NCBI GenBank assembly: GCA_016196035.1
Contig: JACPYM010000015.1
Span: 64,525-128,524, forward strand
Direction of reading: 5' to 3'
DNA from: Acidobacteriota bacterium
GTDB taxonomy: Bacteria > Acidobacteriota > Blastocatellia > RBC074
Length of the DNA stretch: 64,000 nucleotides
Shown: in pieces, positions 44,488 to 53,829 of the stretch
Numbering within the stretch: position 1 is the stretch's first letter
Layout: each line of letters opens with the position of its first letter
Made by a program: the position numbers and the translations under genes
Notes under the pieces: model-generated
The model's database searches: none
The model's input: the letters and a program-made list of their open reading frames with translations, nothing else
Told to the model about the DNA's origin: nothing

Positions 44488-47013
44488 ATGCGTCAATCAT
44501 TCATAAATCGTCAAGCATTTTCAGCAGATATGCTGGTTGTGGCCCCGTCAAACGTCCCGTTCCCAGACAGCGGCAATCAGGTTACACCCCCTGCGCCAGG
44601 CGCATTGGCGGTAGCTGTGGCTGACCCGCAGCACGGCGGGCCCTTACGGTTAGAACTACAGCCGCGCGATTTCCCGCAGGCCTTTGCGACGGTCGTCAAA
44701 CAGGTCGCCATTGCCCTCGGTAGCGCCAGCGAACCCGCCGAAAGCGCCGCGCAAACCTTAGTCGAACAATTTCTCTTGCTGCGGTTTTTGGAAGTCAAAG
44801 GCTGGTTGGGCGAGCCTGATTTTATGCGCCAGCAATGCCAATGGCATTGGCAAGCTGCCCCGGAAGCCCCCAGCTTTTTTATCGAAGTCATCGCCCCGCG
44901 CTTGCGGGTCTTGTCCAATACAGGTTTGCTGTATAACCCAGCCACGCCAACCGCGCTGCCCGCTTTGCCCAATCGGGTTTGCAAAATTATCTGCGACACC
45001 CTCTTCGGCCCGTTCCGCTATACCATTCACGAAGTGACCGCGCAAGAAGCCGAAAAAGTGCTTGACCCGGAATGGCTCGGCGCCATGAGCGAACAGGCGT
45101 TGCTGGAACGGCCTTTGAAACAGGCGCAATCGGCCACGACACAGCGACGCATTCGCGGTTCGTTTCAAACACCGCGCCGCGTGATGCGCTGGATGTGCCG
45201 CGAAGCGCTGTTGCAATACTTGACCGGCAAGCTGGCCGAGTTCACGCATCTCTCGCCCGCCGCCTTGCGCGAACAACTGCTGTTCTTTTTCAACCTGCCG
45301 CCCGCGCCGCGCATGACCGACGACCACGTCGCCGAATTGAGCGAGCACATCTTGCGCGCCGAAGCGCAACGCATGTCGCGCGCGTTGCTGGCCTGTCGCA
45401 TCTGCGATCCGGCGGTGGGCATCGGCACGCTGTTGGCCGGGATGTTGGAAGAGTTGGCGGCGGCGCTGGCGAAACTGGATTTGCTGCTCTATGGTCGCGG
45501 CCTGATCGGGCAGCACAACTACGAATTCCGGCTCAAGCGCAAATTGCTCAGCGATTGTTTGTATGGTGTTGACGTGCAGCCGCCAGCCATCGCGCTCTGC
45601 CGCCAACGGCTTTGGCTGATGCTAGTGGCGTGCGAGCAAAGCGCACCCGACGCCGCGCTGGCCGTGACCATTCGCGAAGCCGCCAATACGCCCGCCCTAT
45701 TTCAGCATCTTGTTTGTGGCGACAGTCTGTTGGGTTGCCGCACGTATGACGATGGCGAGACCGATGCGTTCAAATGGCGACGCGCCTTTCCGCACCTCTT
45801 TCAACAACGTGGCGGCTTCGACATTCTCATTGGCAACCCGCCTATCCGCCCTTTTCTCGCCAAAGACGAAGCCGAGAAAGACGTCTGGGCGCAAATCGGC
45901 ACGCTCTTTCCGCAAGTCAAACGGTCAAAAAATACGGCGGCAGCGTTTTTTGATTTGCCGCGCTTGATCGGTGCGGCAGGCGTCATTACCTGCCAAATCG
46001 TACCGAGGTCGCTGACGTATTCAGAAGGCTGGGCCGCCACGCGCGCCTTGTTGCGCTTGAATTACCATTTGCTGAGTGCGGCGGATGTGAGCGAAGCCTA
46101 TCAGGAAGCCCAACTCGAACAGGAAGTCTTGTTCTATCGGCGCGATCCTGACCGCGACGAGTTGGTTGGTGAAGCCGCACCCGAACCGGTGTTGCTGAGT
46201 ACGGCACTTACTTCTGCCAATGTTGTGGCAGTCCAGACTGACGCGCGCACGGAAATAGAAGAGCGCTACGAGTTAAGCGGCGGCGAGATGGTGCGGCGCG
46301 AAATTGCCATACCCGTGGCGGCCGTTGTGTTGAGCGCCCCGGCCCGCGAATTACAAGAACGCTTGGCGCGGTTGCGCACGCTCGGCGAATTCGTCACGGT
46401 CAAACGCGGCCAACGCTGGCAACGCCGCACCAAACCCGCCGGACGCGCGTCCGCCGCCGTCCCCGTCATCAAAGGCACGAACCTGCGCCAGTTCCGCATC
46501 ACCGACGAATTGCCGCGCCAGGAACCGCCGGCTTACATTCAGCGCGTGCTCGAAGAGTTGCGCCAGCCCAAACTGGTTTGTCCGAACACGCTGGCGCATT
46601 TGAAAAAGCCGCACGAAATGCTGGTGCTGCTCTGCGCGCTCGACCGCAGCGGCTCAGTCGCGCTCGACACCGTGCAACAGCTTTTTCCGGCGCAGGATTG
46701 CCCGTACAGTTTGGAGTTGCTGTGCGGGCTGCTCAACAGTTCGCTGGCGCGCTGGTTTTTCTACTACGTCACTTATCAGCAGGCGGCGCGCGCCGTCGCG
46801 TTTGACGCCGCGCAAATTGGCAGCCTGCCGCTGCCGCGCGCCAACCACCGGTTGATTTCGCAAGTCGAAAAACAGGTGCGCAAGCTGCTCAAACTGGAAT
46901 TGCCGCGCAAGTATTTTCTGCGTGGTCAATTGCCGGAATACGACGCGCTGGATGAGTTGATTTGCGAGCTATACGAATTGAGTGAGGAAGAGCGGCGCGA
47001 GGTGTTGCGCTAA
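44488..47013 (+). CDS. Eco57I/PglX-like gamma-class N6-adenine DNA methyltransferase with a TaqI_C-like target-recognition domain; catalytic tetrad reads NPPI
   Basis: Motif I is [11 protein letters not shown] (45406-45426). [19 protein letters not shown] is present. Motif IV is [10 protein letters not shown] (NPPI at 45835-45846). [12 protein letters not shown] is typical of the TaqI_C specificity domain. Confidence 0.7.
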
Positions 47014-47110
47014 TAACCTGCCTCCGTATATTCGCCAAATACCGCGCGCATCCGATCCGCAATTTCACCCAGCGTCGCATACGCCTCGACCGCCGCGATG
47101 ATGCGCGGCA
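47010..47110 (-). pseudogene. orphaned original 3' end of the methylmalonyl-CoA mutase gene, displaced by the R-M insertion
   Basis: The minus-strand translation is [32 protein letters not shown]-stop. This duplicates the C-terminus of the intact mutase gene 2.1 kb away. Its stop overlaps the methyltransferase stop codon. Confidence 0.7.
47035..47110. repeat. left copy of the 76-bp direct repeat flanking the R-M cassette
   Basis: Aligns with 49178-49253 with 4 mismatches and no gaps (hand alignment). Confidence 0.9.
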
Positions 47111-47113
47111 GCA

Positions 47114-48106
47114 TCAGTAGGGACTCAGGTATTTATCTCCGTCGAAGTGAATTAAATGATCGGGCGTCTCAGCTACCCACACTTCTGTCTCCCATGCGAT
47201 CTCTACCACCCATTTTCTGAACTCTTTTTTGGTCAGGAAAGCGGTTACAAAAACCAATTTGGCAAGGCAACTTTGAGCGGCTTTTTTCAATTCCAGTACT
47301 CTGGTTTCACTCATTGGGCCATTGCTATGAACTGCTTCGATCAGATAAAGCCAGTGCAAGTCTCGATTGTAGGCGATGATGTCAGGCAATTCTTCGTGCG
47401 ACAACCGGAAGAACTTCAGCCGCTCCAGTTCTTGTTTATTGAGATAGAGAATTTTGTTCGTGGTGTCGCCAAGATAAAGGACTTCGCAGCCTTTGCCGAA
47501 ACGAGGCAGGAACTCTTCGATAATTTGTTTTTGCAATTCATTGTGACTTCCCGGCGACAACTCAAGACTGGTGCCGTCGGGTAAGCCAACCGGAAGCTTA
47601 GGGATGTTGCGTTTGCGCGCCAAAGTCTCAGCCAACAAACTTCGATTGACCCGAAAAGCAGCCAGTTCACTTGTCCATTCAGCGTGGCCGAAAGTGCGGA
47701 TCAATCGCTTGAAGCCGATGTCCAGTGAATAACCGCGCGTGGGGTTATTGGTCGCCGCCTCCGGGTTTAGCCCACTATTTATAACCAAATCCGCCAACAC
47801 CAAAAGCTTTAGGTCTTTACGTCTGATGTCGTCGTATGAGCCGCTTGAGATATTCTCACCAAAATGCTGGTTGATGAATTCAATGATGTCTCTGCTCTTG
47901 AGTGCTCTCCCATTATCAAGTCCTTGTGCCGACTGCCAGGATTCGGTTACAGCCGCGACAGCCAGAAAACTCATTGCCATTTTTTCCAAACGCCGTGGCG
48001 TCAAGCCTGCGATTGGTATGCCAACAGCATTCAAAATCGTGACTGCCTGATTCAGCAAATTCCTCGTACTTTCTGGTTTTTTACTGTGCGGGAAATAGTC
48101 TTTCAT
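47114..48106 (-). CDS. type II restriction endonuclease, BsuBI/PstI-like family
   Basis: The N-terminal region [41 protein letters not shown] resembles the BsuBI/PstI HTH domain. The C-terminal LYLGDT...LPDIIAY...[13 protein letters not shown]...[20 protein letters not shown] resembles its catalytic domain. The start overlaps the methylase stop by 26 nt. Confidence 0.65.
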
Positions 48107-49127
48107 AGGGAAATAAACTCATCTGATCGTTAATGCTTAGTTGAGCATCACTCAGCTCCGTCCTCATCAATGAGGCGCTCGCTGAAAAATAATCTTTAAC
48201 ACTTTGCGCCAGGTGTTGCGCCAGGACAGGCGGCACGGCGTTTCCTATTTGATAGAACTGACGGGCTTCGTTGCCGGTAAATTCAAACCAGTCGGGAAAA
48301 CTCTGAAGCCTGGCGGCTTCTCGTAATAACAACCGGCGTCTGCGCCCATCCGGCAATTTGATCCGCTGCATATCGCCAGTTGGCGCGGCGATATTCCGGC
48401 AAGTCAAGGTGCGCGCAGGCTTGTCAGGGTACAAATCGCGCGGGTTAATACACTTCGAAGCGATCTCATACTTCTTCACATATTGATCCATTGACGGCGT
48501 TAGAAACTTAGATTCAGGTGGTGTGGTATACATTAAATCTTCAATGGCTTCTGTTACGGTATACCGCCTCGCCTCACGGCGGGGGAAAGAGAAATTGCCT
48601 TTGTGGGCAACGACAAAAAGCCTTTCCCTGTTTTGCGGAACGCCATAATCAACCGCGTTCATTAGCTTGTAATCAATTAGGTAGCCAAGCTGCGCTAGTG
48701 CCCGCACAATCTCATCGAAGTACCACTTGTTTGAGTAAAGCAAGCCACGCACATTCTCAAATAAGCAAAGCTCCGGCTTCAGCCGTTTGACGGCTTCCAG
48801 AAAAACAGGGAAGCCGTTTCGCCCATCAGCCATTCCGAGTTGATAACCACCAACACTGAAGGGCTGACAGGGCGGCCCTCCGATAATCACCTGTGCCGGC
48901 GGATATTCGGTGGTGAGCGTCAATTCAACTTGATGGCAATCCCCCAATAAATTTTCGGCATACGTTCTCGCCGCATCCGGGTCTCGTTCAAAACCAATCG
49001 TTTCAAACCCGGCTGACTCAAAACCTAAAGCCAGGCCGCCACATCCGGCAAATAGATCAATCACCGTAAGGTTCAGGTCACGATTGGGTTTGAGCGAATC
49101 ATTTAACTTGGCAACGTAATCCAACAT
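48081..49127 (-). CDS. DNA (cytosine-5)-methyltransferase
   Basis: Motif I DLFAGCGGL, IV GGPPCQPFS, VI ENVRGL, VIII QNRERLF, X GNAVPP. A strong AAGGAGGTG RBS precedes ATG 49127. The listed N-terminal extension to 49223 reads into the repeat. Confidence 0.9.
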   Translation of the reverse strand: MLDYVAKLNDSLKPNRDLNLTVIDLFAGCGGLALGFESAGFETIGFERDPDAARTYAENLLGDCHQVELTLTTEYPPAQVIIGGPPCQPFSVGGYQLGMADGRNGFPVFLEAVKRLKPELCLFENVRGLLYSNKWYFDEIVRALAQLGYLIDYKLMNAVDYGVPQNRERLFVVAHKGNFSFPRREARRYTVTEAIEDLMYTTPPESKFLTPSMDQYVKKYEIASKCINPRDLYPDKPARTLTCRNIAAPTGDMQRIKLPDGRRRRLLLREAARLQSFPDWFEFTGNEARQFYQIGNAVPPVLAQHLAQSVKDYFSASASLMRTELSDAQLSINDQMSLFPYERLFPAQ

Positions 49128-49155
49128 CACTTTTTCACCTCCTTTCAATGCATAC

Positions 49156-50772
49156 TTACATCGTTTCTCGATACTCCCCAAACACCGCCCGCATCCGATC
49201 CGCAATCTCACCCAACGTCGCATACGCCTCGACCGCCGCGATGATGCGCGGCATTAGGTTCGCGCCCGCACGCGCCGCCGCTTCAACTTCGTTCAACGCC
49301 GCCAAAGCCCCGTCGGCATTGCGTTCGGCGCGCACCTTACGCAAACGCTCGACCTGCGCGGCTTCAGACGCCGGATCAATCTTGAGCGTCGCAATTGAAG
49401 TCTCTTCCTTAATTTGAAAACGATTCACGCCGACGACAACCTCTTGCTGCGCCTCGACGGCTTTTTGGTAATCGTAGGCCGCGCGCTCGATCTCGCGTTG
49501 CACGTAACCCGTCTCAATCGCGGCCAGCATGCCGCCCATCTCATCCAGCTTGGCGATGTATGCAGCCGCGCGCGCTTCGATCTCGTTGGTCAGATGCTCG
49601 ATCACATACGAACCGGCCAGCGGGTCGGCGGTGTCGGCTACGCCCGATTCGTAGGCGATGACCTGTTGCGTGCGCAAGGCGATGCGCGCGGCGTCTTCGG
49701 TCGGCAGGCTCAACGCCTCGTCCATCCCGTTTGTGTGAAGCGATTGCGTCCCGCCCAGCACGGCGGCCAGCGCCTGGATGGTCGTGCGGATGACGTTGAC
49801 TTCGGGCTGTTGCGCAGTCAGCGTCGAACCCGCCGTTTGCGTGTGGAAGCGCAGCATCATGGATTTCGCGTCTTTTGCGCCGAACCGGTCGCGCATCGTC
49901 CGCGCCCACAACCGCCGCGCCGCGCGATACTTCGCCACCTCTTCCAGAAAGTTGTTGTGCGCGTTGAAAAAGAAGGCCAGGCGCGGCGCAAAATCGTCTA
50001 CGGCCAGGCCCGCGTCCAAGGCCGCCTGCACATACGCAATGCCGTCGGCCAGCGTGAAGGCAACCTCTTGCACCGCTGTCGAACCGGCTTCGCGGATGTG
50101 GTACCCGCTGATCGAAATCGTGTTCCAGTTCGGCACCTCTTGGGCGCAGTAGGCGAAAATGTCCGTGATGATGCGCAACGAAGCGCGCGGCGGATAGATG
50201 TATGTCCCGCGCGCGATGTACTCCTTCAAAATGTCGTTCTGAATCGTGCCGTTGAGCCGAGCGGGCGCGACGCCCTGTTGCTTGCCGACCGCGATATAGA
50301 GCGCCAGCAAGATCGCCGCCGTCGCATTGATCGTCATCGAAGTCGAAACGCGGTCGAGCGGGATGCCGTCAAACAGCGTCTCCATATCGGCCAGCGAATC
50401 AATCGGCACGCCCACGCGCCCGACTTCGCCCACGGCCAGCGCGTGATCGCTGTCGTAGCCAATTTGCGTCGGCAGATCGAACGCCACCGACAGCCCCGTC
50501 GTGCCCTGTTCGAGCAGGTATTTGTAGCGGCGGTTCGACTCTTCCGCCGTAGCAAACCCCGCGTACTGCCGCATCGTCCACAAGCGGCCCCGGTACATCG
50601 TCTCGTAAACGCCGCGCGTGAATGGGTACGCGCCGGGCGCGCCGAGGTCAGTGTCGTAATTGACGGGCACGTCGGCGGGTTGCAGGCAGTTGGGCAGTTC
50701 GATGTCGGAGGTGGTGGCAAATCTTTCTTTGCGTTCCTGGGCCTTGCGCTCTTTGGCTTTTGTCGTCGGCAT
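49156..50772 (-). CDS. methylmalonyl-CoA mutase family protein, catalytic (substrate-binding barrel) subunit without a B12-binding domain
   Basis: [60 protein letters not shown] is the hallmark MCM N-terminal region. The probable start is ATG 50772. Confidence 0.85.
49178..49253. repeat. right copy of the 76-bp direct repeat (inside the functional mutase 3' end)
   Basis: See the left copy at 47035-47110. Confidence 0.9.
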
Positions 50773-50903
50773 AGTGTTTCGTCTCGGAGTAAAGTTGTTG
50801 CGGTATTCGGGCGGCGATTCTAAAACAGGCCGCGCAACATTGGTACAGCACAAGCATTCCAGCAAAAGTTGTACTATCATCCGCCAACCATACGAGGAAC
50901 ATC

Positions 50904-51449
50904 ATGATCGGACTGGAATTGCGTAAAACGCCTGAACAACTGCGTGAAGACAAAGCCCGCGCATCAGCCGCATCAGCCGCATTGGCAGCGGATTTGGCCG
51001 CGTTGGGTTATCCGGGGTTTGTTTACCTGCGCGCTACGCCCCGGCAACTCAACCCTGCCGAAGTCGTGCTGATGGCGCTGGGCCAGGCGGATTTGGAATG
51101 CCGTGTCGTTGAAGCTTTGCCGTGGGTCTTGTTGGCTTACCCCGCATTGGACTGGGATTGGTTGCGTGATGGCGCACTGCGCGACGGCTTGCAAAACCGC
51201 TTGGGCTTTATCACAAACATGGCACGGCGGGTGGCAGAGCAGCGCGGCGATAAGGAAATGTCCGCCTTGCTGGCGCGTGAAGAAGCGGCGCTGGAGCGGT
51301 CGCGGCTCTTGCGCGAAGACACGCTCTGTCACGCTTCGATCACCAACGCCGAGCGGCGTTTTTTGCTCGAACACCGTCCCGCCACAGCAAAACACTGGCG
51401 CTTGTTGACAGATATTGCACCGGAGCATTTGGGTTATGCCGCTATCTGA
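50904..51449 (+). CDS. hypothetical protein
   Basis: Long ORF, divergent from the mutase gene. There is no motif I can name with confidence. Confidence 0.4.
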   Translation: MIGLELRKTPEQLREDKARASAASAALAADLAALGYPGFVYLRATPRQLNPAEVVLMALGQADLECRVVEALPWVLLAYPALDWDWLRDGALRDGLQNRLGFITNMARRVAEQRGDKEMSALLAREEAALERSRLLREDTLCHASITNAERRFLLEHRPATAKHWRLLTDIAPEHLGYAAI

Positions 51450-51491
51450 AATGTCTTGGGCTTGGCGGAAGGGTGATTGTTGCTTCAGGCT

Positions 51492-51956
51492 ATGATGTTC
51501 AAACGAAAATCAACCTTGCAGGTAAGCTTCCTTATCCTGCTGCTTATGGCGGGAAGCTTGGCTTTTGCTTTTCAGCCATATCTCAGGAACAGATTTCTGT
51601 CGCCTCCGTTTGGCGAGTACACGTTTGACGTAGCTGACAATGAAGGAAACAAGATTGCGCAGGGAAAAATCATCGTCACCGTCTTTGCCCACAATGCAAT
51701 GCAAGGGCGTTGGCAACTGCATTTCTTCAAGAATAATCATCCGAGTTTCGCTCACCGCTCTAACGAAACATCGGCAAGCGCGTTTGCCGGAGAAGTGCGC
51801 GGCAATGAGGTGAAAATACATCTCAACCTCAACATGGCCGATGCTAACGATGTATTGGAAGGCGAGCTTGAAAACAGCGCGATGCGCGGTGAATTCCTCT
51901 TTTGTGGTTTTGCAGGTTGCGCCGCGATTGGAAAATTCGAGGCAGTCAGAAAGTAA
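51492..51956 (+). CDS. hypothetical secreted protein (lower-GC gene)
   Basis: Signal-like MMFKRKSTLQVSFLILLLMAGSLAFA. One 60-nt line counted 27 G+C. Confidence 0.4.
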   Translation: MMFKRKSTLQVSFLILLLMAGSLAFAFQPYLRNRFLSPPFGEYTFDVADNEGNKIAQGKIIVTVFAHNAMQGRWQLHFFKNNHPSFAHRSNETSASAFAGEVRGNEVKIHLNLNMADANDVLEGELENSAMRGEFLFCGFAGCAAIGKFEAVRK

Positions 51957-51981
51957 CTCGCTCTTCGACTGAGGAAGTCTT

Positions 51982-53829
<1,848 letters not shown>

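Follow-up and report, generated by a model that had tools for sequence, protein, structure and literature searches.

By what route does a restriction-modification (R-M) cassette come to lie between two copies of the end of a housekeeping gene? The question is raised by a stretch of 64,000 nucleotides (nt) from an Acidobacteriota bacterium (GenBank assembly GCA_016196035.1, contig JACPYM010000015.1, positions 64,525 to 128,524 of the forward strand), called here the window. In it the genes of a C5 cytosine DNA methyltransferase (M) and of an endonuclease of the BsuBI/PstI/SdaI family (R) follow the methylmalonyl-CoA mutase large-subunit gene, and the 3' end of the mutase gene is found a second time beyond them. 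To our knowledge, R-M units with long flanking direct repeats have been catalogued for 25 years and no mechanism has been accepted. The preliminary description of this locus regarded the repeat as a duplication of the gene end, left by an R-M unit that had served as its own mobile element. Our results point to a different origin, to which we assign a probability of roughly 0.55: homology-guided acquisition of DNA that would have carried the end of a donor mutase gene together with M and R, and not a duplication made at insertion.

The repeat pair and the two mutase tails

Read on the minus strand, the locus consists of the body of the mutase gene, the right repeat copy, the residues RETM with a stop codon, a 28-nt spacer, M, R, 3 nt, the left repeat copy and the residues TEAGY with a second stop codon; the string across a junction of the locus is CCCTACTGATGCTGCCGCGCATC. 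The mutase gene (49156..50772, minus strand, 538 amino acids) is intact and ends ...FGEYRETM. It matches PF01642 (E 4e-228) and TIGR00641 and its product is 96-97% identical to the orthologues P0001-P0003. Judged by its nearest mutase relatives, the organism is a Blastocatellia-like acidobacterium. The right repeat copy (49171..49253, minus strand) forms the last 27 conserved codons of this gene. The left copy (47028..47110, minus strand) has the same translation and is a relic of the resident mutase 3' end.

A repeat search gives 83 nt for each copy, 77 of them identical and without gaps. The repeat of 76 bp with four mismatches in the preliminary description is real and is the inner part of this longer one, and the two copies are clearly similar, a point on which that description had made itself depend. 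Other direct repeats within 6.5 kb around it are at best 16-27 nt long, with 66-81% identity. In the whole 64 kb the 38-nt core over which the copies are identical occurs only twice.

The distribution of the differences is informative. Read in the mutase frame, each of the six mismatches is synonymous and there is no indel; the 27 encoded residues are the same in the two copies. The repeat contains 20.7 synonymous and 60.3 non-synonymous sites, and under neutral drift of a relic after duplication six synonymous differences of six have a chance of about 0.007. If the hits fell in the relic alone (two to four hits), the chance is 0.07 to 0.006. The copies are 7.2% apart (raw synonymous divergence about 0.29), which is about the distance between orthologues of different species. 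In M and R the G+C content at third codon positions (GC3) is still 0.52-0.54, as compared to 0.70-0.79 in the neighbouring genes and 0.78 in the mutase gene. Because a divergence of 7.2% stands next to a composition so little changed, the repeat seems too divergent for a recent duplication. The earlier reading of a 76-bp duplication of the gene end is thus upheld for the left copy, which holds the resident end; as for duplication, the two copies look like orthologous segments.

Different tails follow the two copies. On the relic it is TEAGY with its stop codon (47010..47027, minus strand), as the preliminary description had noted (...FGEYTEAGY), and the same tail ends the mutases P0002 (96% identity), P0004 (93%) and L082; P0001 (97%) ends in SEAGY, and T/S-E-A-G-Y is the tail type of the window's clade. 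The tail on the intact gene, RETM with its stop codon (49156..49170, 15 nt, minus strand), is a four-residue one and foreign to this clade. It was found in none of the 120 mutase orthologues from which we built a tail profile. Nevertheless RETM-stop scores 11.7 bits on this profile, inside the range of real tails, and among 300,000 random tails of insert-like composition just 14 scored as well (4.7e-5). The four-residue class x-E-[A/T]-[I/M/L/V] is present in 91 of the 120 orthologues, and the tails TETM and TETI belong to the P0058/L086 clade, not to that of the window. RETM is, judged by the profile, a genuine mutase tail of another lineage's class and not random insert DNA. Since it is of the mutase type and foreign to the clade, the incoming DNA would have carried a mutase gene end. 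The insertion had been said to regenerate the host gene end with a new tail. The tail is new indeed, and its type speaks for a mutase origin. The swap is probably harmless, because the last four to five residues vary freely among orthologues.

For annotation, the mutase gene would be given as intact with a swapped four-residue tail, and 47010-47110 as a gene-end relic, not as a gene. We also note that the relic mutase end 47010-47113 (minus strand) is an open reading frame (ORF) of 34 codons whose ATG overlaps the endonuclease stop (TGATG). Such an arrangement could allow coupled translation; the 34-codon ORF has no family match.

The site and the cassette in other genomes

The relic stop codon (47010-47012) overlaps the stop codon (47011-47013) of a convergent Eco57I-family methylase gene, which makes a gene overlap of 4 nt. 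On the contig of P0001 the mutase gene overlaps its convergent neighbour by 4 nt in the same way. None of the four closest relatives has the cassette, and two of them hold other cargo at the junction. In these two, L081 and L082, the synteny of the mutase and the Eco57I-like gene is kept, one repeat copy is present and other genes are found at the site; neither locus has long repeats. A two-copy arrangement in relatives lacking the cassette, named beforehand as an outcome that would speak against an insertion, is therefore not what L081 and L082 contain. The relatives lack the cassette, and their TEAGY tail and 4-nt overlap match the relic; for these reasons we take the cassette to be a late arrival and the left copy to be the resident gene's own end. 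The search for the empty site, proposed in the preliminary description, has thus yielded relatives free of the cassette and the 4-nt overlap at P0001, seen in gene coordinates and protein tails and not as DNA. A metagenome scan with the Eco57I-like protein and an exact-pattern scan for the repeat core both gave nothing for the empty-site DNA.

By comparison of these genomes, the convergent mutase/Eco57I-like junction (window 47010-47013) is a variable spot. In L081 a low-GC gene is found there (L081:9340-10290), whose product of 316 residues bears a SEC-C motif at its C-terminus; the mutase of L081 ends in an altered tail, QEIS. In L082 the TEAGY tail is intact and is followed by two unannotated genes (L082:4094-4978) with a GC content like that of the host. 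On the P0001 contig the junction is bare.

Homologues of the cassette itself give a second line of evidence. The nearest endonuclease, with 71% identity, is encoded at L086 (GCA_037975565.1) in the order mutase(TETI-stop)-M-R-prfB-ftsK. Here M starts 18 nt past the stop of the orthologous mutase gene and there is no flanking repeat. In neighbour-joining trees of the 25 nearest endonuclease homologues, the endonucleases of the window and of L086 are sisters in 84 of 100 bootstrap replicates. The contig of P0050 has mutase-prfB-ftsK without a cassette, that is, the empty form of the L086 arrangement; a supposed location of P0050 and the endonuclease P0222 on one contig was rejected, as the P0050 contig carries no cassette. 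Other homologues are bare M-R units among unrelated genes, bounded by the start of M and the stop of R. Long repeats flank none of L087, L089 and L090, for which both flanks are available. Since the L086 sister lies behind an orthologous mutase gene and the other homologues lie elsewhere, linkage to the mutase gene is best read as a property of this cassette lineage. Among 80 genome loci with mutase relatives, none has M or R near the mutase gene.

A donor search with a 41-residue query ending in RETM returned short mutase fragments only. One of these, P0244 (L093), was considered as a relic copy and rejected, because it is a frameshifted mutase. At L093:1733-3317 a small deletion or frameshift near codon 480 has broken a metagenomic mutase gene into ORFs of 481 and 33 residues. 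Short mutase-end ORFs beginning MPRI in the protein database are, as this case shows, mostly artefacts and not relic copies. Close homologues of the endonuclease were found on no IMG/VR viral contig, and the best match on plasmids has 41% identity; no vector was identified.

The route of arrival

The origin that we favour may be described as follows. The cassette would have been acquired from another Blastocatellia-like bacterium, in which it already stood directly behind the mutase gene. The incoming DNA would have comprised the last roughly 100 nt or more of the donor mutase gene (conserved codons, RETM and the stop), followed by M and R. The donor gene end would have paired with the resident mutase gene and given one in-frame junction. 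The other end, just past the stop of R, would have entered the resident gene by an illegitimate join 101 nt ahead of that gene's stop codon, possibly at the 7-mer CTGATGC. This 7-mer (47111..47117, minus strand) includes the R stop codon TGA, marks the junction of endonuclease end and relic, and also precedes the repeat in the mutase genes of relatives (CTGATGCC), in the alignment with an offset of 3 nt; it is a possible microhomology for an illegitimate join. Either a linear fragment could have entered by homology-facilitated illegitimate recombination, or a circularised one by a single crossover of the Campbell type, and both would lead to the same final structure. The outcome would be a resident mutase body, a copy that stems in part or in whole from the donor and bears the donor tail, M and R, and the displaced resident end as a relic abutting the Eco57I-like gene. 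If this is true, the apparent target duplication is a pair of orthologous segments. We infer both the donor arrangement and the recombination route.

The first of these routes was reportedly described by de Vries and Wackernagel in 2002 for natural transformation. The window resembles it in having one homologous anchor (the mutase gene) and an illegitimate join at a short GC-rich microhomology, with integration of the foreign DNA adjoining the anchor. Homology next to foreign cargo is indeed seen, in that a foreign mutase-type tail precedes the cassette and a donor-like arrangement exists in L086. Classical events of this kind usually delete recipient DNA beyond the anchor. In the window, however, the homologous stretch begins at the join and the resident end is kept as a repeat; moreover, the mutase anchor contains no statistically significant donor tract. 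A Campbell-type crossover through a short arm on a circle would likewise place cargo between direct repeats, each a mosaic of donor and recipient. Of the mismatch sites, 3-4 show the derived state in the left copy and 5-6 in the right one, which fits one crossover. Differences are that no circle was observed for this cassette and that the mosaic is a post hoc reading of four sites, polarised with relatives about 9% divergent.

Window-specific substitutions are about twice as dense beside the cassette. Upstream of the tail there are 12 in 246 positions and elsewhere 32 in 1356 (nominal p 0.028, scan-corrected 0.12), a pattern that fits a short donor tract and is not significant after the scan correction. 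Over its whole length the mutase gene is about 9.5% away from its counterparts in L081 and L082, and 2.7% is the share of change specific to the lineage of the window.

Several observations weigh against the origin proposed here. The change-point scan for a donor tract inside the mutase gene is not significant (p 0.12), and amino-acid differences from P0001-P0004 are spread along the protein. Both repeat copies are equally distant from relatives (74/83 each in comparison with L081, 76/83 each with L082); neither copy as a whole is closer to them, hence neither is identifiably native. An arm of 83 nt at 7% divergence is a short substrate for crossover, and the 7-nt microhomology is 3 nt out of register. 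Mutase-linked cassettes are known from two loci only, and the spacer between tail and M has no significant similarity to that of L086 (shuffle p 0.43). No donor genome was found, the nearest endonuclease being just 71% identical. Finally, the empty site is known from gene coordinates and protein tails alone, not from DNA.

What has to be weighed most seriously is a true target duplication, made at insertion, whose copies later diverged in place. The arrangement formally matches the insertion with long target duplication, as the preliminary description had stated, and most published features of that class (Furuta et al. 2010, PMC2853133) are found here: homologues of R and M lie in the insert, which is shorter than 20 kb and holds no other mobile-element genes, the direct repeat of 83 nt exceeds 30 bp, and relatives are free of the cassette. 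A related genome with an empty site and one repeat copy is indicated by gene positions and protein tails, and the evidence tends to speak against an origin of both copies from the recipient's own target sequence. The published repeats include imperfect ones (384/412 is an example) and often span stop codons (PMC2853133). In addition, homologous cassettes exist as bare M-R units in several unrelated contexts. Against this stands the pattern of change described above: in a non-functional relic, six synonymous mismatches out of six and no indel would be improbable (p about 0.007), and the repeat has diverged to the interspecies level in the presence of an insert whose composition has not shifted towards that of the host. 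The insert would also have had to start in frame with a genuine-looking mutase tail (4.7e-5 by chance). The sister cassette stands behind an orthologous mutase gene without any repeat, and homologous cassettes elsewhere have no long repeats either. We therefore consider target duplication unlikely, though still the strongest of the competitors. Taken together, the synonymous-only divergence, the foreign but genuine mutase tail and the L086 sister cassette do not point to an R-M unit that moved by itself; ordinary homologous recombination with a co-transferred gene end would be the better account.

It could also be that the insertion is old, that the two-copy state is ancestral in the clade and that the relatives lost the cassette precisely by recombination between the repeats. 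Recombination of this kind would give back the empty site cleanly, copies that are 7% apart suggest an old event, and the L086 cassette behind its mutase gene shows that the linkage is old somewhere. However, so old a relic should hold non-synonymous changes or indels, and M and R still have a GC3 that is lower by 0.25 than in host genes. The cassette is missing in each of the four closest relatives, with different cargo at the junction in two of them, and L086 has a different downstream flank and no repeat. This makes an ancient insertion quite improbable. Slightly less probable again is an assembly ambiguity, in which an empty chromosome (body-core-TEAGY) and a 2.15-kb circle or tandem array (core-RETM-M-R) were merged: unitigs at k=31 from two sequencing runs (L084 and L085) match the window and break exactly 30 nt into the 38-nt identical core on both sides, so that two edges enter the core and two leave it and short k-mers cannot tell which belong together, but the same linear order is found in two independent assemblies, namely L083 (GCA_016179065.1, an independently assembled metagenomic genome with a 100% match to the window over 12.3 kb) and the window's own larger contig, a core of this length is resolved by assemblers that use read pairs or k above 38, and a 2-kb circle has no replication function.

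The cassette genes and the published pattern

The insert between the repeats is 2,060 bp long. Its GC content is 0.486, and no other stretch of 2,060 nt in the 64 kb has so low a value (mean 0.585, standard deviation 0.028), so that windowed GC and GC3 both bear out the low G+C content reported before. As also reported, the insert holds M and R as its only ORFs with a family match. There is no mobility gene, transposase or integrase among its ORFs and no tRNA in the 64-kb window.

The endonuclease gene (47114..48106, minus strand) encodes a full-length protein of 330 residues with the domains PF06616 (E 1e-61) and PF17728 (E 9e-26). Its closest solved structure is that of SdaI (CCTGCAGG; 2ixs, E 1e-46), and its length fits the 327-335 residues of its homologues. 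Ends of the homologues all stop at P-Y-stop, where similarity ceases; in the window this stop lies 3 nt from the left repeat, in agreement with the preliminary description. The methyltransferase gene (48081..49127, minus strand, 348 residues) overlaps R by 26 nt, an overlap that had been seen earlier. Its product matches PF00145 (E 3e-61) and TIGR00675 end to end, as well as the structures of M.HaeIII and M.HhaI, and contains the C5 motifs I, IV, VI, VIII and X as FAGCGG, PPCQPFS, ENV, QNRERLF and GNAVPP. With lengths equal to those of homologues and full-length domains, both genes look intact, which makes activity of the two enzymes plausible.

The spacer from the mutase stop to the start of M (49128..49155, minus strand, 28 nt) has a Shine-Dalgarno-like GGAGGTG 7 nt before the ATG. 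A promoter and terminator scan found no promoter-like or terminator-like site between the mutase gene and M, and M and R are therefore probably transcribed by read-through from the mutase gene.

With both family domains at full length and SdaI as the closest structure, R is a typical member of the BsuBI/PstI/SdaI family. Its recognition site probably contains CTGCAG, as in its SdaI and PstI relatives. M.PstI and M.BsuBI are N6-adenine enzymes, and in this the window differs, its partner being a C5 methyltransferase. A C5 methyltransferase also accompanies the BsuBI/PstI/SdaI-family endonuclease in all five homologous contexts with an identifiable upstream gene. Endonuclease homologues with at least 60% identity carry names from Blastocatellia, Anaerolineae and Bacteroidota. 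Because of this spread of names, the M-R pair is, by the sequence evidence, widely exchanged across phyla.

An enzyme with a CTGCAG core would have no target in this 64-kb stretch. We examined the absence of CTGCAG as a signature of this enzyme and rejected it as not specific: palindromes of 6 bp are strongly avoided over the whole window (1-64000), where 14 of the 64 are absent. These include CTGCAG, CAGCTG, CTCGAG and GTCGAC, for each of which 12-20 occurrences are expected. Among non-palindromic hexamers with a base-composition expectation of at least 10, just 1.2% are absent. The avoidance is weaker in the relatives L081, L082 and L001. Avoidance of this kind suggests that the lineage may have been exposed to many Type II enzymes for a long time.

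On the left the locus is flanked by the resident convergent gene of the Eco57I-family (Type IIG-like) methylase (44488..47013, plus strand, 841 residues), whose stop overlaps that of the relic, as the preliminary description had seen. The protein matches PF07669 (E 9e-13), TaqI_C and the PADLOC model REase_MTase_IIG, and is 82-84% identical to its counterparts in L081 and L082. Matches to Type IIG models lie mainly in the methylase core and the C-terminal TaqI_C-like part, with one weaker match from residue 171; the first ~170 residues have no match. In L081 and L082, too, this gene adjoins the mutase gene, and it has no obvious partner gene.

A second variable stretch of ~1.2 kb separates the mutase gene from the CstA gene (window 50776-51981) and has no counterpart in L081. 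Its ORFs 50904-51449 and 51477-51956 have no family match, and GC drops to about 0.47-0.50 over 51400-52000. On the contigs of P0001 and P0002 other small genes are found between mutase and CstA, including one for a TacA1-like antitoxin.

Insertions of R-M units with long target duplication have been listed from epsilon-, beta- and gamma-proteobacteria, cyanobacteria and actinobacteria, and a candidate case in Thermus has a repeat covering a tRNA gene (Furuta et al. 2010, PMC2853133). The mechanism was left open there, the sole mechanistic suggestion being that double-strand breakage may be involved (PMC2853133). Repeat-mediated excision or amplification of R-M units is cited in the same paper for BamHI in Bacillus (ref. 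84 in PMC2853133). The present locus shares with the pattern of Nobusato et al. 2000 (Gene 259:99) and Furuta et al. 2010 a bare R and M unit without transposase or integrase, direct repeats longer than 30 bp that span a host stop codon, relatives without the cassette, an insert of lower GC and an intact host gene. It is thus not new in kind; only its phylum (Acidobacteriota, Blastocatellia-like) is absent from the published lists. It differs in that its copies diverge at synonymous sites only, that the live copy has a foreign but genuine tail, and that a sister cassette sits behind an orthologous gene elsewhere. What it would add to the known pattern is internal evidence that the repeat here consists of orthologous segments from homology-guided integration.

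For a soil phylum that has been little studied, the locus offers a clean case, the sequence details of which bear on the mechanism. It is tempting, though doubtful, to extend the argument to the bare R-M units that are found in many bacteria between long target duplications; these duplications would then not be made at insertion but be the footprint of one-sided homologous integration. Part of this idea is that a cassette lineage becomes linked to the end of a housekeeping gene, which would serve as a portable homology arm, and hops by means of host recombination. If this is true, an unexplained class would be given a mechanism, and synonymous-only divergence between the repeats would be predicted for other cases; the comparison of synonymous and non-synonymous changes between repeats is applicable to all published ones. 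If it holds more widely, the seemingly self-mobile R-M units of this class would in fact be carried along by host recombination.

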